Shown: piece by piece, positions 1 to 15,401 of the stretch | Position numbering within the stretch: position 1 is the first letter of the stretch | Layout: the number at the start of each line of letters is the position of its first letter | Virus record (IMG/VR): IMGVR_UViG_2547132277_000010 | Length of the DNA stretch: 15,401 nucleotides | Origin: a virus | Taxonomy: Duplodnaviria > Heunggongvirae > Uroviricota > Caudoviricetes | Reading direction: 5' to 3' (one strand) | Made by a program: the position numbers and the translations under genes | Notes under the pieces: generated by a model | Database searches by the model: none | What the model saw: only the letters and a program-made list of their open reading frames with translations | What the model was told of the DNA's origin: nothing

Positions 1-192
1 TCAGGAGCATTTCTGATTAACGCCACCGTTAAGAATCCACCCTTCAACAGCTTCACGAAGGTATGATTTGGGGTGGGTTCTGACTGGCTTCGGAAATCCG
101 TGTCGTTTGGTATAGTTCCAGATTGTCTGACGTGATGAAACACCGAGCTTGTTCATCACTTCTTTCTCAGGAATCAGGCTGGTATCGGTCAT
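1..192 (-). CDS. AlpA/Xis-like small HTH protein (excisionase / prophage regulatory protein family), 63 aa
   Basis: Complete ORF with TGA at bases 1-3. Small basic protein with the WNYTKRHGFPKP-type motif typical of AlpA/Vis/Xis-like proteins. Sits at the int-proximal end of the leftward operon; an integrase would lie beyond the left edge. Recognition from memory only. Confidence 0.7.
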   Translation of the reverse strand: MTDTSLIPEKEVMNKLGVSSRQTIWNYTKRHGFPKPVRTHPKSYLREAVEGWILNGGVNQKCS

Positions 193-269
193 CTTAATTC
201 TCCAGGCAAAAAGAAACCGCCATATAGCGGCTATATCAGATATGTACAGGCCTCATCGAGTGTGAGGCG

Positions 270-614
270 TTAGTCCTTGCGTAGCTCGCTGATTCTTCTG
301 TAAGTCTCTGGTGCTTTGTTTCCGTGTATCTTCATTTCAGACTTCAACAGAGCAACGAGGGAATCCCATTCGTTGAGGATGCCTTTGAATGCCGGAACGC
401 GCTTTGCAACCTTGTCGAATGAATCTCTGATTTCTGGAGTCTGCTCAACAAGTGCAACGCATCGTCTGAAATCGGCTGCGTCATGTGGAGCACCGAAGCT
501 ATGACCATAGATATTCTTTTTCAGTCCACATGCGATTGAGGCAAGAGTTGCGCTACTGATGCCAACATCGCCAGTCGATTGCCATTTCAAAACCTTCATA
601 GCCAAATCTGACAT
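270..614 (-). CDS. hypothetical prophage protein, 114 aa
   Basis: ATG at 614..612 preceded by GGAGA with about 6 nt spacing. No family recognised. Lies in the position of lambda ea/accessory genes between the recombination genes and xis. Confidence 0.6.
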   Translation of the reverse strand: MSDLAMKVLKWQSTGDVGISSATLASIACGLKKNIYGHSFGAPHDAADFRRCVALVEQTPEIRDSFDKVAKRVPAFKGILNEWDSLVALLKSEMKIHGNKAPETYRRISELRKD

Positions 615-619
615 TTCTT

Positions 620-652
620 GTCTCCATAAAACAAAACTCGCCGTAGCGAGTT
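620..652 (-). terminator. hairpin (7 bp stem AACTCGC/GCGAGTT, loop CGTA, 635-652) followed on the minus strand by a U-rich tract; candidate intrinsic terminator or attenuator
   Basis: Inverted repeat read directly from the sequence; the reverse complement of 620-634 is TTTGTTTTATGGAGA. Located between the 92 aa membrane ORF and the 114 aa ORF. Confidence 0.4.
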
Positions 653-772
653 CAGATAAAAGAAAACCCCGCGAGTGCGAGGATTGTTATTGTCTTTTCT
701 TCGTGCATTTGTCGCACTTTCGGCACCATCCAGATAGGCACATCCGTCCGCAATTAACACATATAGGCCACA

Positions 773-1051
773 TCATTTTTCCTCTTTTGGTTTATGAATC
801 TGAATGGTCATGCCGCTTTGAGTGGTGACTACAATGACAGAACCAGGCTGAAGACTGTTAAGATTGAATGCTTCGTAAAACGAATCCAAGGCCAGCGCTT
901 TTTTATTCTTTCGGTTCCACCAACGCCATCCCTTGCTACAGGCTACACTGACAATCCACTGCCCACTCCTGTAAGCCATATAAAACCAGATGAGCAAAAC
1001 CTGAAGGAATGCTATCCAGTCAATAATCGTATATTTCGCGAAGGAGTACAT
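773..1051 (-). CDS. small membrane protein, 92 aa (one N-terminal hydrophobic helix)
   Basis: ATG at 1051..1049 shares one base with the TGA of the upstream DUF551 ORF (TGATG) and is preceded by GGAGGTGA; the track's start at 1054 is a GTG one codon upstream. Hydrophobic stretch IIDWIAFLQVLLIWFYMAY. Confidence 0.55.
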   Translation of the reverse strand: MYSFAKYTIIDWIAFLQVLLIWFYMAYRSGQWIVSVACSKGWRWWNRKNKKALALDSFYEAFNLNSLQPGSVIVVTTQSGMTIQIHKPKEEK

Positions 1052-1347
1052 CACTTCACCTCCTGCTGTGGTGCTGCTGGCATTTCACGCCAGTGCGTAA
1101 CTGAGTGCGGATCCGGATATTCGGTGCCATCATCCCAGCGATTGCCATTCCACATTGCAGACCACATCTCACCGTCTTCATACATGACCATTACCGGAAT
1201 TAACTTATCCGGCATTCGCTCACTACAGCTTATCCAACTATCCGGAGTTACCGGATAGTTGCCGGGTTCTTTAATGTGCAAGCGAGGCTCACCATCTTTT
1301 GGTTCAGGCCACTGGCGCTTCATGTTGATCTTCAATTTATCTTCCAT
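1051..1347 (-). CDS. DUF551-like phage protein; start uncertain (ATG at 1347 or 1323; the track's ATG at 1506 lies inside the upstream annealase gene)
   Basis: C-terminal region WISCSERMPD...VMYEDGEMW...NGNRWDDG resembles the DUF551 domain common in enterobacterial prophages. The upstream gene ends at 1367, so an internal Met start is most likely. Confidence 0.5.
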   Translation of the reverse strand: MEDKLKINMKRQWPEPKDGEPRLHIKEPGNYPVTPDSWISCSERMPDKLIPVMVMYEDGEMWSAMWNGNRWDDGTEYPDPHSVTHWREMPAAPQQEVK

Positions 1348-1366
1348 AGCAGCGGTAATTTCAGCA

Positions 1367-1930
1367 TCACTGATACCAGCACGGCGCTGTGCATCCCACA
1401 ACCGATGGAGATTTCTGGTTGGTATTTTCTGGTGATGGTTTGTTAACTGATGCTGGGATTGCCCATCCCGGCAGCGATGGAGGGAGCCAGTAAAATCCTG
1501 TTCCATCCTTCAGTTTTGCCCTGTGCCACCCCTGCTTTTTATCGAGAGATGTTTGTGCGAAACCTTCCTCAAGGTTATACAGATACCGACCGATTCCCCA
1601 CTGAACGGCAGCGCGCTTCATTGCACCGGAACGACCACCTTTGACGGCTTCTACCTGCGTGTTTTCAGCAGCATCCCATTTGGTTACCCATTCGGAATCA
1701 ATCTTTATCGATATGCCGCATTCAACGCCGCCGTTGTTGGGAATATCGCGGTATTCATTGCGCCATCCTGCTTTGCCGCAAACATCGTCCAGGCGTTTCA
1801 TGATTGCCCGGTTCGTGACATAAGCCAGCACCATAGCCCACACTTTGCCATCGCGTGTTTTACCGCTTTGCTGTATTCGCCATTCGATATCTTCAGGGCT
1901 GAATGGCTCATCGAATTTATTCAAATCCAT
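1367..1930 (-). CDS. Rad52/Rad22-family single-strand annealing protein (Sak-like recombinase), 187 aa
   Basis: ATG at 1930 preceded by GAGGTG. The translation has the Rad52/Sak-type N-terminal annealing-domain character (from memory). It occupies the bet position of a lambdoid pL operon. Confidence 0.8.
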   Translation of the reverse strand: MDLNKFDEPFSPEDIEWRIQQSGKTRDGKVWAMVLAYVTNRAIMKRLDDVCGKAGWRNEYRDIPNNGGVECGISIKIDSEWVTKWDAAENTQVEAVKGGRSGAMKRAAVQWGIGRYLYNLEEGFAQTSLDKKQGWHRAKLKDGTGFYWLPPSLPGWAIPASVNKPSPENTNQKSPSVVGCTAPCWYQ

Positions 1931-1938
1931 AATTCACC

Positions 1939-2109
1939 TCAGAATGGACATGGCCCAAGGAAATAACGCTGATTTAATACTTCGACTCGGGACAAATTAA
2001 GGCATACCCGCATTCCTTCGCGGTCACCATTATGGCGATACCAGAGAGCTTTCTGCGTGTACATGCGTCTCTGTAACTTGCTCTCCTTCACTGTGGTTGC
2101 AAGTGACAT
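1939..2109 (-). CDS. hypothetical small protein, 56 aa (MSLATTVKESKLQRRMYTQKALWYRHNGDREGMRVCLNLSRVEVLNQRYFLGPCPF)
   Basis: Translated by hand (below the track's size cutoff). ATG at 2109 preceded by AGGAGA with 5 nt spacing; its TGA lies inside the annealase RBS. Overlaps the 52 aa ORF by 80 nt in another frame. Confidence 0.4.
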   Translation of the reverse strand: MSLATTVKESKLQRRMYTQKALWYRHNGDREGMRVCLNLSRVEVLNQRYFLGPCPF

Positions 2110-2188
2110 GAATATCTCCTTCGTTACCGATTAAATCTTTCATCTGACGAATGAATTCTTCGTCTGACCAGTTATCTGTAAAACTCAT
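2030..2188 (-). CDS. hypothetical small acidic protein, 52 aa (MSFTDNWSDEEFIRQMKDLIGNEGDIHVTCNHSEGEQVTETHVHAESSLVSP)
   Basis: Translated by hand. Its ATG overlaps the TGA of the Kil-like ORF (ATGA), suggesting translational coupling. Sits in the lambda gam position. Confidence 0.4.
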   Translation of the reverse strand: MSFTDNWSDEEFIRQMKDLIGNEGDIHVTCNHSEGEQVTETHVHAESSLVSP

Positions 2189-2337
2189 TTCCTGCGATAC
2201 CACGGAAGGTTGATAGCTGATTTTATCGCTTTATTTGCTTCAAGCCACATTTTTGAATCACCAATAAATCTGGCTATTACTGCTTTGTTTTGTGCTGCAC
2301 GAAGCATCTGGTGATTGATGGCTATTTCATTGCGCAT
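2185..2337 (-). CDS. kil: Kil-like small protein, 50 aa (MRNEIAINHQMLRAAQNKAVIARFIGDSKMWLEANKAIKSAINLPWYRRK)
   Basis: Translated by hand. GGAGG lies 5 nt upstream of the ATG at 2337. It is the gene immediately after the cIII-like gene, as in lambda (cIII then kil), and has an FIGD-containing motif that I recall from lambda Kil. Recollection, not verified. Confidence 0.45.
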   Translation of the reverse strand: MRNEIAINHQMLRAAQNKAVIARFIGDSKMWLEANKAIKSAINLPWYRRK

Positions 2338-2456
2338 AACGCCTCCAGTTGTTTCTTTGCTGCTCTGATTAATTGTTTAACTCGGCGTGATAATTCAGAT
2401 TCGTGCGGGTAGAAAGCGGACATGACGCCGCTACCCGCGAGCTGAAAGTGCATCAT
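2322..2456 (-). CDS. cIII: cIII-like protein (FtsH/HflB inhibitor family), 44 aa (MMHFQLAGSGVMSAFYPHESELSRRVKQLIRAAKKQLEALCAMK)
   Basis: Translated by hand. AAGGAG lies 6 nt upstream of the ATG at 2456. The pattern LAG-x7-P-x-ES-x-L-x-R(I/V)-x-x-LIR parallels lambda CIII (AIAGWPVAGCPSESLLERITRKLRDGWKRL, from memory). Overlaps the kil-like ORF by 16 nt. Confidence 0.6.
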   Translation of the reverse strand: MMHFQLAGSGVMSAFYPHESELSRRVKQLIRAAKKQLEALCAMK

Positions 2457-2523
2457 GGGTAACTCCTTATATTTGATTGCATAACGAAAAACGCCTCGAG
2501 TGAAGCGTTATTGGTATGCATAT

Positions 2524-2547
2524 AAAAAGGCCCTCACATTGGAGGGC
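2524..2547 (-). terminator. GC-rich hairpin (GCCCTC / loop / GAGGGC) followed on the minus strand by UUUUU; tL-like terminator or attenuator between the N-proximal genes and cIII
   Basis: Stem 2530-2535 pairs with 2542-2547; the plus-strand AAAAA at 2524-2528 is a U-run on the minus strand. A weaker hairpin AACGC/GCGTT at 2490-2509 lies next to it. Confidence 0.35.
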
Positions 2548-2609
2548 AAAGAAGATTTCCAATAATCAGAACAAGTCGGCTCCTGTTTAGTTACGAGCGA
2601 CATTGCTCC

Positions 2610-2637
2610 GTGTATTCACTCGTTGGAATGAATACAC
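2610..2637 (-). other. perfect 9 bp inverted repeat GTGTATTCA / TGAATACAC with a 10 nt loop; candidate RNA processing or regulatory hairpin in the cIII leader
   Basis: Read directly from the sequence; no flanking U-run on either strand, so not a canonical intrinsic terminator. Confidence 0.3.
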
Positions 2638-2651
2638 AGTGCTTATTCGTA

Positions 2652-2966
2652 TTAATAAAACACCCAATTTTCTGTTTCTTGGTTGTGTCCAAAGTTATAT
2701 TCAATATCTGGTGTTGATGTATCAATATTCTTCATCCCATCAACAAGAGTTGATACAACAGCCAAATCTTGTTTGATTCTCATCAAATGGTATTTCTTCC
2801 GGCGCAATAAACTTTCAATGGCAAGTTTCTTCGTCGGGAATGCAAAAGATCTTTCTGCATTTTTTGCTACTTTCTTAATTGCATATCTATTTCTCCTTTG
2901 TTTCCATTCCTGTAACCACTGATTTGGTGCTGGTTTAAAATTAACAATCCAATGCGCAGGAACCAA
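2652..2966 (-). CDS. hypothetical basic protein, 104 aa; doubtful start (TTG); may be the downstream half of a frameshifted gene together with 2867..3187
   Basis: The track ORF begins at TTG 2966 with no in-frame ATG until M62. The reading frame is open back to a stop at 2999..2997 and overlaps the 3' end of the 106 aa ORF. Confidence 0.3.
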   Translation of the reverse strand: MVPAHWIVNFKPAPNQWLQEWKQRRNRYAIKKVAKNAERSFAFPTKKLAIESLLRRKKYHLMRIKQDLAVVSTLVDGMKNIDTSTPDIEYNFGHNQETENWVFY

Positions 2967-3187
2967 CCATGCATAATGCTCTGTCTGATGAAAAGCTTAT
3001 ATTGAAGTGCGAATATTTTGATTCCATCTTCTTCAACTGTCGCTTGGAATCTCCAGAAAACAGGCATTCCATCATGTTCAGTTTCTGATTTAGGAAAAGG
3101 TACGCTCCATGATTTTGTCATATCTAACCTCAAATAAGTGGTTTGCTGCCAAAACAATGAACCATCCGGAAATTCCAGATAGTTCAT
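2867..3187 (-). CDS. hypothetical protein, 106 aa
   Basis: ATG at 3187 overlaps the TGA of the upstream 74 aa ORF (ATGA). Its last ~33 codons overlap the 104 aa ORF and look less protein-like. Confidence 0.5.
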   Translation of the reverse strand: MNYLEFPDGSLFWQQTTYLRLDMTKSWSVPFPKSETEHDGMPVFWRFQATVEEDGIKIFALQYKLFIRQSIMHGWFLRIGLLILNQHQISGYRNGNKGEIDMQLRK

Positions 3188-3408
3188 AATTCACTCTTCA
3201 ATACTTCCAACTTACTAATCGCCGAAAGATATCCGCGCTGATAGGGCATCATCATTCCTTCGAGCTTGCCACTTCTTAACTCCTCCCTGAGCAATTGTAT
3301 TGCTTGATCAATAACCTCTGCCTTAGCGTCCTTTATGGCTTGCTTGCGGGGCTTTGCTTTCTGCTTTGGCAGATTTCTCAAGCATGATGGAATGTATGTC
3401 TGATTCAT
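3184..3408 (-). CDS. hypothetical small protein, 74 aa, immediately downstream of N
   Basis: ATG at 3408 (the track starts one codon earlier at GTG 3411). AGGTAAG lies upstream. No family recognised. Confidence 0.55.
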   Translation of the reverse strand: MNQTYIPSCLRNLPKQKAKPRKQAIKDAKAEVIDQAIQLLREELRSGKLEGMMMPYQRGYLSAISKLEVLKSEL

Positions 3409-3411
3409 CAC

Positions 3412-3795
3412 TTACCTGGCTGTCAGTTGTTTTGATTTCCGGTAGCCTGCTGCGTAAAGAGCTACATTTGGAAGACATACACCAGTTTCTGGTTGCTTAT
3501 GTCCAAACTCATTCGCGTACACAATGGCCGCTCGCTCCAGATTGCGTCTGTATTCTTTCTGTTGCCAGATCACGTCCTGTGCCATGAACTTAATTGGCTT
3601 AGCGTCTTCTATGCGCTCAGGCGTTTCGTGAGTACCTTTAGCCTGAATCTGCGCTCTGCTTAGAGTAGGGCGGTGTAATACTTCTGAACTTATTGCTTCT
3701 TCGCGGGCCAGCACGCCGTTAGCTAATGCCTTTGCCTTTAAACGCTCACGACGACGAGAACGTGAATTGCCTTTGAACTGAGTTCTGCGTGTCAT
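3412..3795 (-). CDS. N: N-type transcription antitermination protein (P22 gp24-like), 127 aa
   Basis: AGGAGG lies 5 nt upstream of the ATG at 3795. N-terminal arginine-rich motif (NSRSRRRERLKAKALA) and C-terminal LPNVALYAAGYRKSKQLTAR, matching the P22 gp24 C-terminus LPGVALYAAGHRKSKQITAR as I recall it. Confidence 0.85.
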   Translation of the reverse strand: MTRRTQFKGNSRSRRRERLKAKALANGVLAREEAISSEVLHRPTLSRAQIQAKGTHETPERIEDAKPIKFMAQDVIWQQKEYRRNLERAAIVYANEFGHKQPETGVCLPNVALYAAGYRKSKQLTAR

Positions 3796-3960
3796 ATAGA
3801 CCTCCTGATGAACTTTGGTGGTGTGGTAGGTGGGAGACCCATTTCGACCTGTTTCGGCCTACTTCAATTCGGCAATAGTCCCGCAGGCCTCGCCGCTTTA
3901 CGTGCGACATATTCCTGTCCATGAACCCTTCACCACACCCCAAAGTTCACTTTGGTTATT

Positions 3961-3975
3961 GCGCTTTGTCAGCGC
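3961..3975 (-). promoter_or_regulatory. nutL boxB hairpin (minus-strand RNA GCGCUGACAAAGCGC)
   Basis: Plus strand gcgctttgtcagcgc. On the leftward transcript this is a 4 bp GC stem with loop UGACAAA, identical to the P22 boxB as I recall it. Lies between the candidate pL and N. Confidence 0.6.
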
Positions 3976-4044
3976 CGTAGATTCTTGCTTGAATCGTTGT
4001 ATATTCACCGCCCTGGTGAGTAGTGCGTCCTGCTGATGGCGATA

Positions 4045-4083
4045 ATAATGAACCAATAGTTCGATATTATCAAGAACTATTGG
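4045..4083 (-). promoter_or_regulatory. candidate pL promoter (-35 TTGATA at 4073..4068, 17 bp spacer, -10 CATTAT at 4050..4045) overlapped by a 10 bp inverted repeat operator CCAATAGTTC-N11-GAACTATTGG
   Basis: Hexamers and inverted repeat (4053-4062 / 4074-4083) read from the sequence. The core AGTTC-N11-GAACT recurs in the cI/cro intergenic region as CAGTTC-N11-GTACTG. Confidence 0.4.
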
Positions 4084-4256
4084 TACGAATTTTTGTGATT
4101 TATTAACTCTGCGAAGTATGATTTTGATATATAAGGAAATTTATTTTTGTAAATGTGGCTGATGAAGGTTATGCGGCAGGGATCAGAACTGCATGGTTTA
4201 GCGAATTACATCAATAAATACAATTGGTTATGTGTTTTTTTTGGGGCGAGAGGCAA

Positions 4257-4286
4257 AGAAAACCCGGCGCTGAGGCCGGGTTTTTC
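4257..4286 (-). terminator. bidirectional intrinsic terminator (AAAA-AACCCGGC-GCTGAG-GCCGGGTT-TTTTT) ending the cI / accessory-gene operon
   Basis: 8 bp GC-rich stem with runs on both sides, placed directly after the stop of the 258 aa ORF. Confidence 0.65.
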
Positions 4287-5062
4287 TAGGCTACCAGAGA
4301 CTCAATCCAAGAGTCTCTGGTATGGAATGGCAACACTCGTGCGGTATCATTAAATAGTAGTGATAGTTGCTGTAGCTCAGGTGTTAACCCATCGCTGTCA
4401 ACTATTACAAATCTATTGTTTATGTCAGGAACGACCTGACTTAAGTCAACAATCTTCCCAACTGTTGAGTGGGCAGTATTCCATCCCTTACTGCTGGCAA
4501 GGCTTACCGTAAACCCGCGTTTTGGTGGTATTAGTCGAGACTCATTCCTTAGCGTTAACGGAACAGTAATGTTATGCCCACTAATACCTTTCACTTTTTC
4601 CTTTAAGGCTAGTCGCTTCCCAAGCCCTGCTGATTTTAAGTAACTGATTACACATTTTTCGAACTTATCGTCTTTGACCTCAGCATACCAATCAGCAGTT
4701 TGGGCGGATGCAAGAATCCCACCACGAATAACATTTGCAGTTACCTGTCCAACGGACGACTCATCTGCCCACGCAGATATCTCTCCAGAGTCATTTAATG
4801 AAATTCCTTGCGAAGCGAGTGATGACCTGATCAGATCAATTTTCTTTTTAGTCAGGTGGATGCCGCGTGATTCAATATTCATCAATGTATCGCAGTAGTC
4901 TGTAACCCTATACTGACCACTCATCTCTTGAACGAATACACTTATCTGCTCACAATCATCGTAGTATGTGAATGGACTAATAACGCGCAGCAACGTGTCG
5001 CTCATTGGGTGGCATTCAAACCCGAGCTTAGATATGACTGTTGAACACGTTACATTTCCCAT
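4286..5062 (-). CDS. hypothetical protein, 258 aa; distal gene of a two-gene accessory cassette in the rexAB-equivalent position
   Basis: ATG at 5062 lies 10 nt upstream of the stop of the 180 aa ORF (13 nt overlap); AGGT is upstream. No family recognised and no obvious transmembrane segments. The locus is visibly more AT-rich than flanking phage DNA. Confidence 0.75.
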   Translation of the reverse strand: MGNVTCSTVISKLGFECHPMSDTLLRVISPFTYYDDCEQISVFVQEMSGQYRVTDYCDTLMNIESRGIHLTKKKIDLIRSSLASQGISLNDSGEISAWADESSVGQVTANVIRGGILASAQTADWYAEVKDDKFEKCVISYLKSAGLGKRLALKEKVKGISGHNITVPLTLRNESRLIPPKRGFTVSLASSKGWNTAHSTVGKIVDLSQVVPDINNRFVIVDSDGLTPELQQLSLLFNDTARVLPFHTRDSWIESLVA

Positions 5063-5592
5063 GATAACTGACCTGATTTATCTTGATTAGGTAAAGGTGG
5101 GCTGCCTTCATATATGATATTAAGCGCCTCGCAAAAATAATTCCAGTAGCCAAAAAAATCATCTGGCTTGATGTTCGTTTCAAGCTTAAGTGCAATTTCT
5201 TCCCCAGCTGATTCGAAGTACATGTGATAGTGAGGACCTCGAGCCACCTCAACAAAATCTGGATGGTTCACTATAGATTTATTACGGTGTGGCTTGTTAT
5301 CCGCAGGGTACGGATCAAGCGCGTAAATGCGCCTGTCATGAAGAAACATCACAAATGAAATCTTCACTATATCCACCCCTTCAACGATAGGAGGACGCCA
5401 GTGAAGCATAAATCTTATGCCTGTGATTGGGTTGCCAATTTCATCAAAAGCTTTGAGATCCAATTTAAACCAGATTGGGGTTCGTCCCTCACTTCCGGTC
5501 CATGTAACTCCGCTAAAAGTTACTTTTTTCAAGCGAGTAATAGCTTGGTCAACCTCTTTCTGGGTAGGCTTAAAGTCGCCTTTTTTAGCCAC
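5050..5592 (-). CDS. hypothetical protein, 180 aa; proximal gene of the accessory cassette downstream of cI
   Basis: Longest ORF begins at GTG 5592 with no nearby in-frame ATG; GGTGA lies about 9 nt upstream. Same strand as cI, 97 bp downstream of its stop. No family recognised. Confidence 0.7.
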   Translation of the reverse strand: MAKKGDFKPTQKEVDQAITRLKKVTFSGVTWTGSEGRTPIWFKLDLKAFDEIGNPITGIRFMLHWRPPIVEGVDIVKISFVMFLHDRRIYALDPYPADNKPHRNKSIVNHPDFVEVARGPHYHMYFESAGEEIALKLETNIKPDDFFGYWNYFCEALNIIYEGSPPLPNQDKSGQLSWEM

Positions 5593-5689
5593 TGATTCGT
5601 ATCACCATGAAAGTTATTGTTAATACCTGTGCTTCTTGTCACCCAAACGTCTCTTCAGGCCACTGGCTATCAGCTATGTGACGATGAAG

Positions 5690-6397
5690 TCACGAACTTT
5701 TCAGCCACTCCCTTGCCTCGATGTCATCCAGATGGCGAGATTGCTTCAGAATACCAGCCACATACTCCACCTTTGCTACTTGATGATAAGGCAACGTTAT
5801 TGGCCTATGGTCCTGGTTGATGCTTGTAAACTGGTATTCTCCGTCTCTGTCATAGCCAAGAACTTTGATCATGTTGTGTCCTTCAACGGTTCTGACAAAC
5901 ACCTCATCACCCGGGAATACTTTGGTGTTAGGCTCAATGAGTACATATTCTCCTGATTTTATTCTAGGCCACATGCTGTCTCCTTTCACACGAAGACCAA
6001 AGGCATCTGGATCATCGCTATAAATCTTGAGCCACCCATCGCGCTCTTCGGTCATCTCGATGGCACCATCAACACCAAGAATTGCCTCACCAACCACGCG
6101 CACTAACCCTTTTTTTAATTTGCCAACAAATGAAAGAGTATCTTCATCATTCGCTCCATTTAACGAAGTGCCGTGCTGAAGCCAAACAACATCAACGTTT
6201 AGAAATTTCGCAAGCGCATTCATTTTTTCCTGACGCGGTAAAGACTCAGCATTAAACCACTTGCTAACGCCTTTGGACGAAAGAGAAAGGGCACGGGCTA
6301 TAGCCATTCCCCTACCATGTTCATCAAGACCAGCTTCTTTACAGGCTTGCGCTAGCCGCTGGGCGAATTCTTTGCGCACTTTTTCATTCTGAACCAT
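5690..6397 (-). CDS. cI: CI-type prophage repressor (N-terminal HTH, C-terminal LexA-like S24 peptidase domain), 235 aa
   Basis: HTH region MAIARALSLSSKGVSKWFNAES and C-terminal GDSMWP...VLIEP motifs typical of autocleaving repressors. Divergent from the cro-like gene. No Shine-Dalgarno before the ATG, consistent with a leaderless pRM transcript as in lambda. Confidence 0.9.
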   Translation of the reverse strand: MVQNEKVRKEFAQRLAQACKEAGLDEHGRGMAIARALSLSSKGVSKWFNAESLPRQEKMNALAKFLNVDVVWLQHGTSLNGANDEDTLSFVGKLKKGLVRVVGEAILGVDGAIEMTEERDGWLKIYSDDPDAFGLRVKGDSMWPRIKSGEYVLIEPNTKVFPGDEVFVRTVEGHNMIKVLGYDRDGEYQFTSINQDHRPITLPYHQVAKVEYVAGILKQSRHLDDIEAREWLKSS

Positions 6398-6404
6398 GAG
6401 TACG

Positions 6405-6457
6405 ATACTAAAGCACTTGCAAAAACTTTCAGTTCAATCATAATGTGTACTGAAAGT
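6405..6457. promoter_or_regulatory. OR/pR/pRM switch region: candidate pR (-35 TTGCAA 6417-6422, 16 bp spacer, -10 CATAAT 6439-6444) with operator-like inverted repeats
   Basis: Inverted repeat ACTTTCAGT (6425-6433) / ACTGAAAGT (6449-6457) and the AGTTC-N11-GnACT arrangement shared with the pL region. A weak pRM -10 (TAGTAT) would place the start at the cI ATG. Confidence 0.5.
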
Positions 6458-6475
6458 ACGAAAAAGGATATTCCT

Positions 6476-6703
6476 ATGCAAAATCTTGATGAGCCGATTA
6501 AAGGTGTCGGCATCCCTGAAGTTGCGAAGGCTTGTGGAGTTAGCGAAAGGGCTGTCTATAAGTGGCTCAAAAACGGCTTCCTCCCTAAGACTGAGTTTTT
6601 TGGGAAAACGAAATACGCATCAAAAATCGAAGAGATTTCTGGTGGCAAATATCAAGCAAGCGAAATGCTTGAAATAAGCAAAAAGAACCTTCTGGCTGCA
6701 TAA
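6476..6703 (+). CDS. cro: Cro-like HTH regulator, 75 aa (start at the internal ATG 6476, not the track's 6443)
   Basis: AAGGA lies 8 nt upstream of ATG 6476. HTH VAKACGVSERAVYKWLKNG. First rightward gene, divergent from cI. Confidence 0.75.
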   Translation: MQNLDEPIKGVGIPEVAKACGVSERAVYKWLKNGFLPKTEFFGKTKYASKIEEISGGKYQASEMLEISKKNLLAA

Positions 6704-6710
6704 GTAACAC

Positions 6711-6756
6711 CGCTATTTTCACAATGGACATTCGTCCTACGTCGCTGACAAAGCGA
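6711..6756 (+). promoter_or_regulatory. nutR: boxA-like CGCTATTTT (6711-6719) and boxB hairpin UCGCUGACAAAGCGA (6742-6756)
   Basis: The boxB loop UGACAAA is identical to the nutL boxB loop. Located directly after the cro stop, as in lambdoid phages. Confidence 0.55.
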
Positions 6757-7183
6757 GCCCCAAGATATCTCCTCTCTGGTTATCTGCATCATCGTCTGCC
6801 TGTCATGGGCTGTTAATCATTACCGGGATAACGCCATCGCCTACAAAGCCCAGCGCGACAAAGCCACATCCATCATCGCTGACATGCAGAAGCGTCAACG
6901 TGATGTAGCAGAACTTGACGCCAGATACACAAAGGAGCTTGCTGATGCTAACGCGACTATCGAAAGTCTCCGCGCTGATGTTTCTGCTGGTCGTAAGCGC
7001 CTGCAAGTCGCCGCCACCTGTGCAAAGTCAACGACCGGAGCCAGCAGCATGGGCGATGGAGAAAGCCCAGGACTTACAGCAGATGCTGAACTCAATTATT
7101 ACCGTCTCAGAAGTGGAATCGACAGGATAACCGCGCAGGTTAACTACCTGCAGGAGTACATCAGGACTCAGTGCCTGAAATAA
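6749..7183 (+). pseudogene. Rz: Rz (i-spanin) homolog truncated at the 5' end; an internal ATG at 6884 could give a 99 aa product lacking the membrane anchor
   Basis: Translation [22 protein letters not shown]...RQRDV...YTKELADA...AGRKRL...QC closely parallels lambda Rz (from memory). The frame opens only after a TGA at 6746-6748; the first ~9 codons and any ATG/GTG/TTG start are absent. Confidence 0.75.
6945..7130 (+). CDS. Rz1: Rz1 (o-spanin) outer-membrane lipoprotein embedded in the +1 frame of Rz, 61 aa
   Basis: AGGAG lies 8 nt upstream of ATG 6945. Signal-peptide-like N-terminus with lipobox LVVSAC followed by a proline-rich mature part ([12 protein letters not shown]), the hallmark Rz1 architecture. 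Confidence 0.75.
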
Positions 7184-7215
7184 TTTTTTTGCAAATCACA
7201 AAGTCCATTTAATGA

Positions 7216-7238
7216 GCCTCGCGATGCGGGGCTTTTTT
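7216..7238 (+). terminator. intrinsic terminator after Rz/Rz1 (GCCTCGC-GAT-GCGGGGC followed by TTTTTT)
   Basis: Hairpin with one G-U pair followed by a six-T run, about 30 nt after the Rz stop. Confidence 0.55.
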
Positions 7239-7385
7239 ATGTCCGCAGTAAACACGCTTCACACGCGCGACTTATGAACACAGAACCTTTCAGGATGACC
7301 CTTGAGGATGCCGGTTTGGTGATCGGTGCCTTTCTGTGGGCCGGAATCCTGTGTGACAAGGTTCATCACTAAAAGGTGATCACTG

Positions 7386-7916
7386 ATGAAGTACCCAACA
7401 GTTATTGTCAATGGTGTGTCCGTTCGTGTTGATGAGGATGGACGCTACAACTTAAACGATCTCCATGCAGCAGCAGTTGCAAATGGAGAGGCTACAGAGC
7501 AACAGCGCCCAAGCCAGTTTTTGCGTAGCGCGCAGATAAAACGCTTCATAAAAGCACTGGAGGCCAAAGTGCAAAAAAGCACTTTGGAACAAATTCAACC
7601 ACTTAAAATAATCAAAGGTGGTGCAGAACCAGGTGTGTGGGGTGTTGAACTTCTGGCAATCAGATATGCAGCATGGATTAAGCCGGAATTTGAAATCGAA
7701 GTTTATGAAGTTTTCAAAACGGTTGTCCGTCTCGGCGTTGGCGCAATGTCCCGTCTGAATAGAATCGATCACATCATCAATACTGAAACCAAAGCGATAA
7801 GCCAGTGCGCAAGCCAAATGGCTAAGTGGGGCGTTGGTGGGCGAAAAAGATTGCTTCATGTTGCACGTGAGAGAGCGGCAAATGAAGTGCAAATGTATTT
7901 GCCCGGAATGGTGTGA
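7386..7916 (+). CDS. KilA-N domain protein, 176 aa
   Basis: AAGGTG upstream of the ATG. N-terminal region (RYNLNDLH...FLR...KGG...GVWGV.LLA..YAAWIKPEFEIEV) fits the KilA-N consensus as I recall it. Confidence 0.7.
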   Translation: MKYPTVIVNGVSVRVDEDGRYNLNDLHAAAVANGEATEQQRPSQFLRSAQIKRFIKALEAKVQKSTLEQIQPLKIIKGGAEPGVWGVELLAIRYAAWIKPEFEIEVYEVFKTVVRLGVGAMSRLNRIDHIINTETKAISQCASQMAKWGVGGRKRLLHVARERAANEVQMYLPGMV

Positions 7917-8103
7917 TTTCGCAGGTTAATCCAGTTTTTGCATTACGGCAGTACCGCGAAACAACCCAAGCCAGTAAGTGGGGAAATAACACTGGCAGCC
8001 ACTGAAAGATGAACCTCCTGCCTGATGGCAAAAAAGATTCTTTGTGGTGGCGGACTGATGGAAAGACATCTTAATCAAGCAACCACTCCACAGGGTCATA
8101 ATT

Positions 8104-8499
8104 ATGAACGACCAGCAAATCGAAAAAGAAATCGTTGAGAAAGGCAAAACGGCACCGCGTGTAACACCCGAGAAAATTGAAGGCCTCATTTGCAGTGAGC
8201 ATTTTTTCACTGCTGCGCAGGGTGACCACCAGGCTAAAGAAGATGACCTTATTTATAATCCGGAGCCTTATGTCGAAGCCACCCCTGATGCTCTGCACCT
8301 TCTCACTTTCTGCGTATTGGTACTGAAGAATGGCTTCACCGTTACCGGAGAGAGTGCCTGTGCAAGCCAGGAAAACTTTGATGCAGAAATTGGTCGGAAA
8401 ATTGCGCGTGAAAATGCGGTTAACAAAATTTGGATGCTGGAAGGTTACTTGCTGAAGCAGAACCCGACTATTCCAGTTACTCAATTCCTTGTGGTGTAG
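8104..8499 (+). CDS. phage gp49-like (Phage_gp49_66 family?) protein, 131 aa
   Basis: Compact ORF directly upstream of the portal gene. Family assignment is from memory and uncertain. Confidence 0.45.
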   Translation: MNDQQIEKEIVEKGKTAPRVTPEKIEGLICSEHFFTAAQGDHQAKEDDLIYNPEPYVEATPDALHLLTFCVLVLKNGFTVTGESACASQENFDAEIGRKIARENAVNKIWMLEGYLLKQNPTIPVTQFLVV

Positions 8500-8505
8500 G
8501 TTGAT

Positions 8506-10749
8506 ATGGCAGAAAAAAAGATGACTGACTGGCATCGCAAGGTGCTGTGCAACTTTGATAATGCCTGGTCAGCAACGCAGGATATGCGTGAGCAGATTAT
8601 TGAAGCTCAACGTTTCGTCCGGGTGTCCGGCGCACAGTGGGAAGGCAGCACAAACGCTGGTTACTCATTTGATGAAGGCAGGTTTGAGCATTACCCGCGC
8701 TTTGAGCTGAATAAGATTGCCCGTGAATGTGATCGCATCATTGGCGAGTATCGACAGAATCGCATCAGCGTTAAATTCAGGCCGAAGGATGACAAGGCAT
8801 CGGAAGCGTTAGCCGAAAAGATGAACGGCAAATTCCGCGCTGACTATCAGGAAACATCCGGTGGCGAAGCGTGTGATAACGCATTTGATGATGCTGTAAC
8901 GGGCGGATTCTGTTGTTTCCGCATGTGTGCCGATTACGAAGATGAAATGGACCCAAGTAACGAGCAGCGACGCATCAGCCTTCTTCCTGTTTACGACCCG
9001 GCCACATGCGTCTTCTTCGATCAGGACAGCAAGCAATATGACCGCTCTGATGCTATGTGGGCTATGGAAATGTTCTCCATGACGCCTAAAGCGTTCGAGG
9101 CTGAATACCCTGATTCCATCGCGGCAAGCCTTTCTCGTGATGACACTGGCACTCAATATGACTGGTCAACTCCTGATGCTATCTATGTTGGTCGCTACTA
9201 CGAAGTTCGCATAGAGAAGGTGAAGCTCACAGCATGGCGTAACCCTGTTAGCGGAGAAACGGCAATCTATGATGAAGATCAAATCAAAGATATTGTCGAC
9301 GAGCTGACCGATGGTGCATTCGAACTGATTGGCGAGCGAACGGTGAAGAAGCGCCGCGTTTATTGCGGTCTTCTGTCTGGCGCTGAATGGCTGGAAGAAC
9401 CGAAGCGTATTCCGGGCGAACATATTCCTCTCATCCCGGTATATGGGCGTCGATCATTTGTTGATAATCAGGAGCGAATCGAAGGTCACGCAGCAAAAGC
9501 GATGGATGCACAGCGTCTTGAGAACCTGATGGTTTCCATGATTGCAGATAACGCTACTCAAGCTGGCGGTGATGGCATTCCTGTAGTTGATGTTGACATG
9601 ATTCCTGGTCCTCTCGCCACTCATTGGGCGGAGCGCAACAAAAAGCGCCCGGCGTTCCTGCCGATGGTCAGTCTGAAAAACAAAAACGGAGATATTACTG
9701 CGCAGGCTCAGGTCAGCAGTTATACGCCTCCGACACAAATGCCTCCAGCTCTTGCCGGACTATTGCAGTACACCGGAACGGCTATTCAGCAAATTACAGG
9801 TGCGTCGCAGCTTGAGAACATGCCGAGCAACGTCGCTACCGATACCGTTGATAGCATCTTTAACCGGATGGACACGCAGTCCTATATCTACATGGACAAC
9901 ATGGCTAAATCCATGCGCCGTGCTGGCGTCGTGTGGCTTTCTATGGCTCGTGAAGTCTATGGCAGTGATGCGCCGATGCGTATCGTTAATGAGGACGGCA
10001 GCGATGACGTGGCGCTGATGACTGGTGAAGTGGTTGACCGTCAGACAGGGCAGGTTATCGCGCTTAATGACCTTTCGCAGGGTAACTATGAAGTGACTGT
10101 CGATGTTGGCCAGTCGTTCGCTACTCGCCGTGATGCAACGGTTAAGTCGTTACTTTCCATGCTGGCACTTATCTGGCCACAACGGGCGTTCATCCACTGG
10201 CGCATTCAACTGGCAAAAAGTCTGACCGAGTATAATCGGGTCTATCAATCTGCATTCTCACCGAACTTACTCGAACGCCCGCGTCTGGAAAGCCATCTAC
10301 AAAAACTCCTGACCGATGCCGTGAAAATGCGTGGGCTGATTGCGCCCGCCAGCAAAGAAACCCGTATTCCAAAATCGATATATGAAGGTATCCAGACCAT
10401 TAATCGCAATCTGGTTTGTATGCTGGAGTTGCAAATCAATGCATACTGGGCCACGCGCCCCAGCCATTTCGTGTTATTGAACGCGCAAAAACTTCGTGAT
10501 ACCCAGCATATGATGCAGCAAATACTGCTGAGCCTTGTTCATGCGCTGTACGAAGGTAATCCGCAGCCGGTTTTTGCCAATACGGAAAAATTGAACGATG
10601 CTGTGGAAGAGCTGCGTCAGTTGCTGAATAACCACCATGACCTGAAGGTTGTGGAAACACCAATCTATGGTTATGTGTGGCTGAACATGGAAACGGCACA
10701 TCAGCTTGAGTTGCTATCGAATCTGATTTGCCGGGCCTTGCGCAAATAA
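8506..10749 (+). CDS. P22 gp1-type portal protein, apparently chimeric: portal-like to about residue 555, then ~190 residues of unrelated sequence
   Basis: N-terminal FDNAWSATQDMREQ..., central RRVY...GEHIPLIPVYG and ...VDVGQSFATRRDATVKSLLSML parallel P22 portal segments (from memory). The C-terminal tail (from about 10170) lacks the Q/E/A-rich portal barrel and looks like a different soluble domain. Confidence 0.75.
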   Translation: MAEKKMTDWHRKVLCNFDNAWSATQDMREQIIEAQRFVRVSGAQWEGSTNAGYSFDEGRFEHYPRFELNKIARECDRIIGEYRQNRISVKFRPKDDKASEALAEKMNGKFRADYQETSGGEACDNAFDDAVTGGFCCFRMCADYEDEMDPSNEQRRISLLPVYDPATCVFFDQDSKQYDRSDAMWAMEMFSMTPKAFEAEYPDSIAASLSRDDTGTQYDWSTPDAIYVGRYYEVRIEKVKLTAWRNPVSGETAIYDEDQIKDIVDELTDGAFELIGERTVKKRRVYCGLLSGAEWLEEPKRIPGEHIPLIPVYGRRSFVDNQERIEGHAAKAMDAQRLENLMVSMIADNATQAGGDGIPVVDVDMIPGPLATHWAERNKKRPAFLPMVSLKNKNGDITAQAQVSSYTPPTQMPPALAGLLQYTGTAIQQITGASQLENMPSNVATDTVDSIFNRMDTQSYIYMDNMAKSMRRAGVVWLSMAREVYGSDAPMRIVNEDGSDDVALMTGEVVDRQTGQVIALNDLSQGNYEVTVDVGQSFATRRDATVKSLLSMLALIWPQRAFIHWRIQLAKSLTEYNRVYQSAFSPNLLERPRLESHLQKLLTDAVKMRGLIAPASKETRIPKSIYEGIQTINRNLVCMLELQINAYWATRPSHFVLLNAQKLRDTQHMMQQILLSLVHALYEGNPQPVFANTEKLNDAVEELRQLLNNHHDLKVVETPIYGYVWLNMETAHQLELLSNLICRALRK

Positions 10750-11707: not shown

Positions 11708-12147
11708 GGAACGTAGTTCTCACCAATAAATAAGCGTCAATACGGTGCTCCGTTGACGCTTACTTTAATCCGTTTTCTGAGCTTAGATTTTTCTGTTCCT
11801 ACCCAGACCGTGGATTTGGAATTCATTTTTTGTCAGGTCAATGCTAATCGTTAAAACGGCCATAACGCACCTCCACTGGAAGGTTTATCAGTAATATCCT
11901 ACCGTTGCTTCATGGTCGGGGCGTCCATTCCATTATTATCGGTTTTCCTTTCTGTTTATAAATGAAAACGCCAGCTGTATTCAGGCTGGCGTCAGGGGAA
12001 ATGAAGCCTGTTGAGTGAGATTCACCGGTTCTGGTGCAGAAGCTGCAGATGGCGCAGGGTAAGGACATCTTCTCTTGCCTGCTTAATACAGGACAACAGT
12101 GCTGTTTCTGTGGTTAATGGCACTATACCCTGCATCACTGCATTGTC

Positions 12148-12342
12148 TTACAGCAACTGGTGAGGGCTGGCATAAGTTGCCGGTGTTTCGGTAGAGTCAC
12201 GGTCATCCACCACGCGGAGTGAATAACCTTTTTCAGCGGCCTTATTAATCAGTTCAGTGATATTAACACCATCAATGTCAACGACAATGTGCCCCATATC
12301 CAGCGCCTGTACGTTAACGCTGTCGGCTTCCAGTGTCATCAT
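12148..12342 (-). CDS. yeeW: YeeW-like small protein, 64 aa
   Basis: Its ATG overlaps the TGA of the restored cbtA reading frame (ATGA). Position and size match the gene that follows cbtA in CP4-44-type islands. Confidence 0.55.
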   Translation of the reverse strand: MMTLEADSVNVQALDMGHIVVDIDGVNITELINKAAEKGYSLRVVDDRDSTETPATYASPHQLL

Positions 12343-12712
12343 TTCGCCTCCGGATACTTACCCAGGGTAATGTTATTTACCGTTCTGTAATTGTCGCGGG
12401 TCATCAGGCCGGTCGCCCTGCGAGCCCGGAGGATATCGATGCTGTTTATTAACTGAGAGCGGGTACAGGCGCTGAATCCCGGCTGGTCGGTAGCACCAGC
12501 GCGTATTTTTCCACGAGAAAGTTCACCGCATCACACAGTGAAATGCCTGCCTCAATATGCTGCTCAATCACACGTTCATCGGCAAAAGGTGTGTCATTCA
12601 GTGTGAGGCCATAGTGCTGGTCCAGCAGTCGGGACAGCAGTATCTGCCAGATTTCAACAGGAGACGGGCGAGAACTGGTCGCCTGCCCGGGTAATACAGG
12701 TAATGTTTTCAT
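12339..12712 (-). pseudogene. cbtA: CbtA (YeeV)-family type IV toxin gene disrupted by a 1-base frameshift near 12493
   Basis: The track ORF gives 87 aa ending ...[19 protein letters not shown]. The next frame continues [46 protein letters not shown], matching the YeeV C-terminus as I recall it. One base appears to be missing after GTGC. Confidence 0.7.
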
Positions 12713-12800
12713 ACTGAAGATTTTCCTGATATGCAGATATAAAAATGGAAAAGTGGCGTGGTGAAAACACCAGGCCGTAGCAGAAGGCTATTCTGGAGAG

Positions 12801-13169
12801 TTAATTTTTCATTTCGGGCGTCGGATAAACAGCCAGATAAACGTAACCACAACTGCTGAGGGTATCGGCTTTGCAGGTCAGCCCTTTTGCATACAGCGTG
12901 ACGGTATGCTGATGGCGGGGATTCAGTTCACCGCTGGTGAGCATGAGTTCCAGTTGTTTCATCAGCAGCGGAAAGGCCTGGTCCAGGTGGTACGCATCTG
13001 CATCGCTGAACAGGCCTCTGATACCGGCGCGGTCGGCAAGGTAATGCAACCGGTTACCCTCCTGCACCAGACGTGCCCCGAAACAGGGCGTCACGGTGCA
13101 GGGCAGCCCCCACCAGGGGCGGTCGTGATTGTCGTCGGGAAGTGTTGTCCCGGGGAGTGTGTCTGACAC
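12801..13169 (-). CDS. cbeA: CbeA (YeeU)-family type IV antitoxin, 122 aa
   Basis: MSDTLPGTTLPDDNHDRPWWGLPCTVTPCFGARLVQEGNRLHYLADRAGI... matches YeeU/YfjZ-family antitoxins from memory. Starts at GTG 13169 with AAGGA upstream. Confidence 0.85.
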   Translation of the reverse strand: MSDTLPGTTLPDDNHDRPWWGLPCTVTPCFGARLVQEGNRLHYLADRAGIRGLFSDADAYHLDQAFPLLMKQLELMLTSGELNPRHQHTVTLYAKGLTCKADTLSSCGYVYLAVYPTPEMKN

Positions 13170-13242: not shown

Positions 13243-13464
13243 TCAGTTCAGGGTGACGCTCATCAGCCGGACATACGGACCAAAACTGTCCTTACGACGT
13301 TCAGCAAACACGGCCAGCACACCGGGAATATCCTGCACTTCACGACCGGTATACGCTTCAGCACTGCCATGCCAGCGGTATTTACCGGTACAGAACGGAA
13401 AAAGACGGGATGTCGGATGTTGTTGGTGAATACGCATGGCTTCACCACGGGTGATAATTTTCAT
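13243..13464 (-). CDS. DUF987 protein (YeeT/YpjJ/YkfH family), 73 aa
   Basis: MKIITRGEAMRIHQQHPTSRLFPFCTGKYRWHG... is typical of this family. GAGGT lies upstream of the ATG. Confidence 0.8.
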   Translation of the reverse strand: MKIITRGEAMRIHQQHPTSRLFPFCTGKYRWHGSAEAYTGREVQDIPGVLAVFAERRKDSFGPYVRLMSVTLN

Positions 13465-13526: not shown

Positions 13527-14003
13527 TTAAAGCAGACCATGTTCGGCAAAGGAGAAAACCTGGTTGCCACCGACTATCAGATGGTCCGGCACCCGGATAT
13601 CCACCAGGCCCAGTGCCTGTACCAGACGTTCCGTGATAAGGCGGTCTGCCTTACTGGGTGTGACTTCACCGGAGGGGTGATTGTGTGCCAGCACCACGGC
13701 AGCGGCATTGTGGTACAGGGCGCGTTTAATCACTTCCCGGGGATGGACTTCCGTGCGGTTGATGGTGCCGGTAAAGAGGGTTTCACCGGCAATCAGTTGA
13801 TTCTGGTTATTCAGATACAGCACCCGGAATTCTTCACGCTCCAGTCCCGCCATGTTCAGAATCAGCCATTCCCGTGCTGCACGGGTGGAGGTGAAGGCCA
13901 CGCCGGGTTCATGAAGATGGCGGTCCAGGGTTTTCAGGGCCCGTTGAATGAGGCTGCGCTCGCCGGGCGTCATCTCTCCGGGCAGAAAGGAAAGTTGTTG
14001 CAT
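13527..14003 (-). CDS. RadC-like JAB/MPN domain protein (YeeS/YfjY family), 158 aa from ATG 14003
   Basis: Contains the HNHPSG motif and surrounding RadC-like sequence. GGAGAG lies 7 nt upstream of ATG 14003; the track's ATG at 14018 has no RBS. Confidence 0.85.
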   Translation of the reverse strand: MQQLSFLPGEMTPGERSLIQRALKTLDRHLHEPGVAFTSTRAAREWLILNMAGLEREEFRVLYLNNQNQLIAGETLFTGTINRTEVHPREVIKRALYHNAAAVVLAHNHPSGEVTPSKADRLITERLVQALGLVDIRVPDHLIVGGNQVFSFAEHGLL

Positions 14004-14018
14004 TGTGCTTCTCTCCAT

Positions 14019-14498
14019 TCAGTCGATGATGCGCATAATGGCGCTGCATTCCGGATGCTGCAGGGCGTAATCCCGCAACCGGTAATAATGGACCGTCATG
14101 GCATAATTCTCCGTACGACAGGCATGATGACTGTACGTCATCAGACAGGCGGCAATACCGGCGGCTTCCGGGCTCATTTCTGCGCGGTTACCGTTCATGG
14201 CATTGAACAGTACCCATGTTTCGTCATCATCGTCATCCGGTTCGGGTGCCATAAATGCCCCGCCGTTGTTCAGGGTGTACAGATTCCAGATACCACCGCA
14301 GTAGTCTTCGCACAGACGGTCCATCCAGCCGAAGACACGGGGCTCCAGGGTCACCCACTGTGGAATGAGGCCAAAATGCTGCGGCCAGAAGCTGATGCGC
14401 TGTTCATCAGGGACGAGGCTGGCAACCAACTGAGGCGGATTATTCTCTGGTGTTGTAGCTGAATAAATTGTGGGGGTATTCTGAGAAACGGTTTTCAT
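14019..14498 (-). CDS. antirestriction protein (YfjX/YafX-type), 159 aa
   Basis: AAGGAG lies 7 nt upstream of the ATG. Acidic stretch PEPDDDDDETW and the C-terminal region are typical of this family in CP4-type islands. Confidence 0.8.
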   Translation of the reverse strand: MKTVSQNTPTIYSATTPENNPPQLVASLVPDEQRISFWPQHFGLIPQWVTLEPRVFGWMDRLCEDYCGGIWNLYTLNNGGAFMAPEPDDDDDETWVLFNAMNGNRAEMSPEAAGIAACLMTYSHHACRTENYAMTVHYYRLRDYALQHPECSAIMRIID

Positions 14499-14579: not shown

Positions 14580-15401
14580 TCAGCGCAGGCTCTCCAGCAT
14601 CGTTTCTGCCATCACCCACAATGCGCGATTGAGCTTAATGTCGGTATCAATGCTGTGAATGGCACGGGTATGGATACGTTTTCCTTTTGCACTGCGACCG
14701 GAAATCCCGCCTTTCAGCATATTCTCTTGGATGGTCTGATATGCGCTCCACAGGTCCTTACCGTAATCCTCCCGGCGTCGCGGCGTCAGAATGTCGGCGG
14801 TGGTGACGGGCTGATGTTCGTCACCATAACGGTAAGTCAGTGCCGCCTGTGCCAGCGCCTGGCGTGCCGGTGGCGGCAGGACCAGCGACTGCATGGCATC
14901 ACGCTTCTCCTCTATCCGGTCAAACACGCCCACCACCTCGTAAGCCCCTTCGATAACTTTCTCCACTACATTTCCCCGGTGTGGAACACGCACTTCCCCC
15001 AGAGACTGGCCACAGACGCACCCGTTCTGGCAGACGAACCTGAAGTAACCCGGCAGCATCTGGTAGCTGGAGGTACCGTCATGAGAGTTGAGCAGAATAA
15101 TTTCAGGGACATGTTCTCCGTTTATCTCTCCGGCCCGCCGCAGACGCAGCATGTGTTTTGTGTATCCCCGGCGGCCCGGGTCGCGCACACGGGTCTGGCA
15201 GGCGAAGAACGGCTGAAAGCCTTCCCGCTGCAGATTTTCCAGGACGGTAATGGTGGGAATGTACGCATACCGTTCACTGCGGGAGGTGTGCCGGTCTTCC
15301 CCAAAAATACTGGGTACATGGCGTATCAGTTCTTCATGTGTCAGCGGACGGTCACGGCGTATCTGGTTTGCAGCATAACCAAAACGACTTGCTAATCGCA
15401 T
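14580..15401 (-). CDS. DUF932 protein (YfjQ/YafZ family), 273 aa; its ATG is the last three bases of the window
   Basis: Length and sequence character match the DUF932 proteins that precede the antirestriction/RadC/TA module in CP4-type islands. Confidence 0.8.
   Translation of the reverse strand: MRLASRFGYAANQIRRDRPLTHEELIRHVPSIFGEDRHTSRSERYAYIPTITVLENLQREGFQPFFACQTRVRDPGRRGYTKHMLRLRRAGEINGEHVPEIILLNSHDGTSSYQMLPGYFRFVCQNGCVCGQSLGEVRVPHRGNVVEKVIEGAYEVVGVFDRIEEKRDAMQSLVLPPPARQALAQAALTYRYGDEHQPVTTADILTPRRREDYGKDLWSAYQTIQENMLKGGISGRSAKGKRIHTRAIHSIDTDIKLNRALWVMAETMLESLR

Follow-up and report, generated by a model that had tools for sequence, protein, structure and literature searches.

A broken toxin gene beside an intact antitoxin gene raises the question of whether the toxin has been lost, whether a shorter toxin is still at work, or whether the break is an error of sequencing or assembly. 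This question is posed by a cbeA–cbtA (yeeU–yeeV) pair in the 15,401-nt stretch of DNA analysed here, termed the window. The locus is the CbtA/CbeA module of a CP4-44-type integrated island in which the toxin gene is a pseudogene; it is real but ordinary. The reading preferred here, with a probability of roughly four in five, is that an old single-base deletion killed or crippled the toxin in this decaying island and left the antitoxin orphaned.

The module and its neighbouring genes all lie on the minus strand in the ORF listing of the window and are described here in the direction of reading. The island part present in the window begins at its upstream end with a DUF932 gene (14580..15401), an ORF whose name is taken from the PGAP annotation of homologous loci and not from a Pfam assignment. 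It is followed by an antirestriction protein gene of the KlcA/ArdB type (14019..14498; Pfam PF03230, E = 4e-37), by yeeS, which encodes a RadC-like JAB domain (longest ORF 13527..14018; PF04002, E = 8e-45), and by yeeT, a DUF987 gene that forms the upstream gene of the module (13243..13464; PF06174, E = 2e-39); annotations of homologous loci agree with these three assignments. On homologous DNA, PGAP calls a yeeS of 477 nt, which places its start downstream of that of the longest ORF in the window. The antitoxin gene cbeA (12801..13169) is separated by a spacer of 88 nt (12713..12800) from the cbtA sequence, which occupies 12339..12712 and has 374 nt instead of 375. Downstream are yeeW (12148..12342), with only the N-terminal domain of DUF5983 (Pfam PF25638, DUF5983_N), and the remnant of a DUF957 gene (12025..12114). 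Pfam scores are far above the curated cut-offs for each module protein except that of the DUF932 gene, and no NCBIfam model matched any of the window's module proteins. A scan of the cbeA–cbtA spacer for promoters and terminators gave nothing above chance, the counts being at the level of shuffled sequence. The gene order, with the antitoxin directly upstream of the toxin on the same strand, yeeS and yeeT upstream and the DUF5983 gene downstream, agrees with that of Escherichia coli K-12 and 13 other genomes.

The locus can be compared in detail with the CbtA/CbeA module of the CP4-44 island of K-12 MG1655 (YeeV/YeeU; b2005/b2004). The two share the neighbourhood of tmaR and yeeA, the order yeeS-yeeT-cbeA, the 88-nt spacer and a cbtA-yeeW pair joined by an ATGA overlap, and the segment from yeeT to yeeW is 99.5% identical in nucleotides. 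They differ in cbtA, and also upstream, where the window has the DUF932 and antirestriction genes and K-12 has flu and yeeR. Two other K-12 modules, YkfI/YafW of CP4-6 and YpjF/YfjZ of CP4-57, belong to the same Pfam families and have the same operon layout. Their toxins, however, are intact in K-12, and their antitoxins are shorter than CbeA, at about 105 aa, and do not have its N-terminal 18 residues.

Over the 375 columns of its alignment to the K-12 gene (b2005), the window cbtA differs at exactly two. The first difference is a nonsynonymous substitution, G34A, which results in A12T. The second is the loss of one G from codon 74 (CGT), so that CTG GTG CGT ACC in K-12 reads CTG GTG CTA CC in the window; the missing base is a C on the plus strand, between window bases 12492 and 12493. 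The first-pass annotation had placed a single-base deletion near 12493, and this position proves to be exact. When the G is put back into codon 74, an open reading frame of 124 aa is obtained that is identical to K-12 CbtA save for A12T. As the gene stands, the toxin ORF (12449..12712) stops after 87 aa, as had been read from the sequence alone, at a TAA at 12451..12449; the product comprises 73 native CbtA residues and a tail of 14 residues that is out of frame. The remaining 50 codons (75-124) are found in the -1 frame (12339..12491), where the first reading had also located them, and their TGA (12341..12339) overlaps the yeeW ATG (12342..12340) as ATGA. This 3′ remnant is 100% identical to K-12, without further lesion.

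The CbtA_toxin domain (PF06755) is thus broken at profile position 74, and its two parts are read in different frames. The 87-aa ORF covers profile positions 1-73 of 112 (E = 3e-37, 127 bits), and positions 75-112 are covered by the downstream frame (E = 3e-13, 50 bits); each match clears the cut-off of 25 bits. Together with the alignment to K-12, the Pfam matches bear out the identities first proposed for CbtA, CbeA and yeeW. An uninterrupted toxin ORF of ~124 aa, a defining feature of complete CbtA/CbeA modules, is missing here; the other testable features of such modules are all found.

The possibility that the deletion is a sequencing or assembly artefact, with the base present in the real genome (GTGCGTACC) and the toxin intact, had been raised at the outset. 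Single-base indels are the commonest assembly error, and a different CbtA frameshift, located in an A5 run, does sit in an assembly full of split genes. The deletion in the window, however, lies in the context GTGC|TACC, outside any homopolymer; the sole run of five or more in cbtA is the A5 at CDS positions 203-207. Furthermore, when 5,426 complete E. coli genomes were searched with a 71-nt query across the junction, about 1,497 records contained an exact match; the matching genomes come from many laboratories and platforms. The intact K-12 counterpart, a 72-mer, was matched exactly in 1,786 records of the same set. The exact 38-nt junction is also found, among GTDB species representatives, in only one genome, a Shigella flexneri chromosome with the same locus and 99.4% identity over 5.2 kb, and at least 1,000 contigs of a public protein collection encode exactly this 87-aa protein. 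Because the identical junction is present in so many independently sequenced complete genomes, sequencing error is excluded, and an artefact of either kind has next to no probability. The deletion is a real allele, carried by about one in four complete E. coli genomes.

The allele is also already known, in that RefSeq annotates it as frameshifted. All 13 RefSeq E. coli copies that were opened carry the PGAP label 'cbtA ... frameshifted', among them O157:H7, O104:H4 and O111:H8 strains, and this label is likewise given to DNA identical to the window gene. In the RefSeq allele of O157:H7 PV15-279, O104:H4 FWSEC0009, O111:H8 8B, 203740 and HUE1, the deletion, locus and neighbours are identical to those of the window and the differences consist of linked SNPs only; strain 203740 is 100% identical to the window over yeeT-yeeW. 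A longer query of 1,151 nt across the locus found many complete genomes with 100% identity. Carriers of the deletion include O157:H7, O104:H4, O111:H8 and O6:H16 ETEC strains, as well as isolates from pig, duck and chicken, from several continents. A literature search found nothing specific to the cbtA frameshift allele.

In every copy examined the deletion is identical and so is the chromosomal position, the island end adjoining tmaR/yeeA. Two SNPs, 12679 A/G in cbtA and 12229 A/C in yeeW, divide the 14 deletion-bearing copies into two haplotypes, and the G12679/C12229 haplotype is also that of intact K-12. The simplest history suggested by these sequences is one ancestral deletion with a single origin. 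One G would have been lost from cbtA codon 74 on a K-12-like haplotype; two substitutions, one of them the nonsynonymous A12T inside the pseudogene, would then have produced the window haplotype; and the allele, passed on by descent and by recombination, would have reached Shigella flexneri and roughly one in four E. coli. In a protein search, this out-of-frame tail was also found joined to other N-terminal haplotypes (P0020, P0024, P0049), which suggests recombination among paralogous islands. The 3′ remnant of cbtA displays no additional decay in the 14 copies, at a divergence that is too low there to be informative.

Recurrent independent inactivation was also considered, since the protein search returned other 87-aa forms, and it did not hold up. 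The A5-run deletion, a candidate for an independent frameshift, was set aside as its assembly has many split genes (L008). A deletion of the adjacent base (loss of C, giving 'ALVV') is found on one metagenome scaffold (L009) and in none of the 5,426 complete genomes.

Toxins of the CbtA family bind FtsZ and MreB and make cells lemon-shaped, and what has become of the toxin here is the major question. The ribosome would read through the 73 native codons, add the 14 unrelated residues and stop. The product would be without the C-terminal 51 residues (74-124), which are conserved and form two predicted helices. Within this segment, residues 86-103 (S.LI.SIDILRARR.TGL) are almost entirely invariant in 22 full-length homologues and are spanned by the Pfam CbtA model, and because this stretch is lost, loss of function is the default expectation. 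Judged from sequence, the truncated product is most likely a dead or strongly attenuated toxin, and the untouched upstream cbeA would have been left as an orphan antitoxin.

There are, on the other hand, grounds for keeping an attenuated but active toxin as a rival explanation: R15 and F65 are retained in the translated 87-aa product, the break comes at the end of a predicted helix, and the functions of CbtA are separable. In work by Heller et al., MreB binding was lost with R15C and FtsZ binding with F65S, and CbtA is non-toxic only as the R15C + F65S double mutant (PMC5624674). In a review of Tan et al. (2011), the FtsZ interaction is assigned to the CbtA N-terminus and the MreB interaction to the C-terminus, the two activities being separable (PMC3920263), so that the functions could be divided between the two ends of the protein. 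An AlphaFold2 model of a full-length homologue, of moderate confidence only (mean pLDDT 66), displays helices at residues 18-34, 46-55 and 59-74, separated by a low-confidence linker (72-87) from further helices at 91-101 and 106-116. By this model, the frameshift would fall exactly at the end of helix 3 and before the linker, with the three N-terminal helices kept. A search of the PDB for a solved CbtA structure yielded none, the best match having E = 0.12. C-terminal deletions of CbtA reportedly still gave cell elongation in the 2011 work of Tan and colleagues, which is, to our knowledge, the only paper with CbtA truncations. It is therefore conceivable that CbtA(1-73) with its 14-residue tail folds as an N-terminal helical unit and inhibits FtsZ, MreB or both, which would make the locus an attenuated live module that still needs cbeA. 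The antitoxin gene is intact in 12 of the 14 deletion-bearing copies, and the frequency of the allele is high (about 1,500 complete E. coli genomes, comparable with about 1,800 for the full-length toxin), as might be expected of such a module. Descent from one event, however, explains the frequency; most of the changes in cbeA on the deletion background alter the protein, a nonsense mutation and a frameshift among them; the C-terminal segment that is lost is the family's most invariant part after the core; and the out-of-frame tail and the missing helices may destabilise the protein. A working toxin is on balance unlikely. The more specific proposal that the 87-aa allele is a natural separation-of-function variant, an N-terminal CbtA fragment that targets the division machinery and is held in check by intact CbeA, is a speculative one with about as little in its favour, and is rated slightly lower. 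As to the related idea that the 87-aa form is a conserved natural short variant, the form is widespread, by common descent of one allele, and no evidence was found of selection maintaining it.

A full-length CbtA-like protein could in principle also be restored at a low level, by programmed -1 ribosomal frameshifting or by transcriptional slippage before the stop. No stop interrupts the -1 frame between CDS position 183 and the original stop, and an A_AAA tetramer is found inside this open stretch, within the A5 run at codon 69. No X_XXY_YYZ heptamer is present anywhere in the 264-nt 0-frame ORF, however, and A5 is too short for efficient transcriptional slippage. Within the species, moreover, the intact allele occurs about as often, as would be expected of a mutation but not of a site designed for recoding. 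Recoding is very improbable.

Returning to the loss of the toxin as the preferred reading, the first-pass annotation had described the locus as a decay pattern with the toxin switched off and the antitoxin kept. The lesion and the intact antitoxin ORF are observed; inactivation itself is a probable consequence, deduced from the sequence. The antitoxin ORF, first reported as intact, is confirmed to be so: cbeA (13169..12801, minus strand) starts with GTG and encodes 122 aa, without any lesion. The protein matches PF06154 over profile positions 1-100 of 101 (E = 4e-53, 178.5 bits), that is, the domain is complete, and it matches the YeeU structure, PDB 2H28, over residues 1-122 (E = 5e-84). It is identical to RefSeq WP_001285585.1, found in strain 203740 and others, and D108G is the sole difference from K-12 CbeA. 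According to Masuda et al. (2012), as cited in a later article (PMC5624674), the K-12 protein acts by a type IV mechanism, protecting FtsZ and MreB by bundling them without binding the toxin.

The persistence of an intact cbeA might reflect too little time for decay, or buffering of paralogous CbtA-family toxins. CbeA, YafW and YfjZ are interchangeable in neutralisation assays, each neutralising all three K-12 toxins, YkfI and YpjF included (PMC5371832). By analogy, an orphan CbeA could still buffer paralogous toxins of the family. Genomes with the deletion allele hold from one to six homologous loci each, and some of them (HUE1, CP53, CFSAN061772, ETEC6) hold this locus only. Because of such genomes, cross-protection is not the general reason for the retention of cbeA. 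The locus resembles the orphan-antitoxin or 'anti-addiction' idea, in that the toxin gene is broken and an antitoxin able to neutralise homologous toxins is kept (PMC5371832). It differs in that there is no sign of selective CbeA retention among the 14 deletion-bearing copies.

The changes in cbeA in these 14 copies consist of one synonymous, two missense (L62P, M76V), one nonsense (W20*) and one frameshift mutation. They are few and the sample is small, and they look unconstrained, which hints at a toxin that no longer needs an antidote. In O157:H7 PV15-279, CbeA with L62P (WP_001285587.1; equivalent to window position 12985) is found beside the frameshifted toxin, and a proline at position 62 might impair the antitoxin. 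PK-F-10122 has the W20* mutation (equivalent to window 13111) and EC596 has lost one nucleotide from a C4 run at codon 5 (equivalent to window 13155), both with the same cbtA deletion; the EC596 lesion may be an assembly error. For both strains the PGAP annotation starts at codon 22 and gives a 'YeeU family antitoxin' of 101 aa (WP_044863316.1). This shorter CbeA may still work, because its length is close to that of the natural paralogue YfjZ.

The end of the island downstream of cbtA is decayed as in K-12: yeeW, the DUF957 gene, a transposase fragment and a yoeF fragment are all remnants, and DUF4942 is absent. The yeeW product has 64 aa, compared with 150-162 aa in full-length DUF5983 homologues. 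In complete modules the DUF957 gene follows that of DUF5983; only its last 30 codons remain here, detected by tblastn with the L009 ORF at 80% identity, and PGAP labels the gene 'DUF957 ... incomplete'. Relative to the complete module of L009, an internal deletion took the DUF5983 C-terminal domain together with the DUF957 N-terminus, as it did in K-12. A 2026 paper has raised the possibility of a programmed frameshift, or of an extra domain, between DUF5983 and its neighbour (PMC13294457). The sequence GGAGG is present just upstream of the yeeW ATG. Translation of cbtA now stops 107 nt before that ATG, and any coupling of termination and reinitiation at the ATGA overlap would thereby have been lost.

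The yeeA gene beside the island has been damaged independently in several lineages. It is truncated by IS621 in an O104:H4 strain and frameshifted in an O111:H8 strain, and in S. flexneri it is interrupted at a point that corresponds to about window 10241..10243. In the window, yeeA is fused in frame to a phage portal gene, forming a 747-aa ORF (8506..10749, plus strand). Portal homology extends up to 10173 and homology to yeeA, comprising its last ~193 codons, begins at 10170; the junction at 10170..10173 is a 4-nt overlap, TATC, of the kind that illegitimate recombination would leave after a deletion. The portal-yeeA junction was found in none of the 5,426 complete E. coli genomes, and in any of these genomes a single place accounts for at most 37% of the window. 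The part of the window at 1..10169 is a mosaic, apparently degraded lambdoid prophage. Over its first ~6.8 kb it shares ~97% identity with the early region of Stx-converting phages and has a cI-like repressor (6397..5690) and exo/bet-type genes; these are followed by an Ant-like ORF (7386..7916), beyond which lies the truncated portal gene. No replication, lysis or terminase genes are found between the early region and the truncated portal gene within this prophage part.

The finding matters little beyond the right annotation, which is a cbtA pseudogene with an intact cbeA, as given in RefSeq. It does provide a clean and datable example of the textbook pattern of toxin-first decay in a chromosomal toxin–antitoxin module. 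It also calls for caution, as surveys of 'CbtA/CbeA systems' by domain matches score the allele as complete in approximately a quarter of E. coli, O157:H7 and O104:H4 included. If the truncated product were active, the allele would be a ready natural one for dissecting the two-target mechanism of CbtA.
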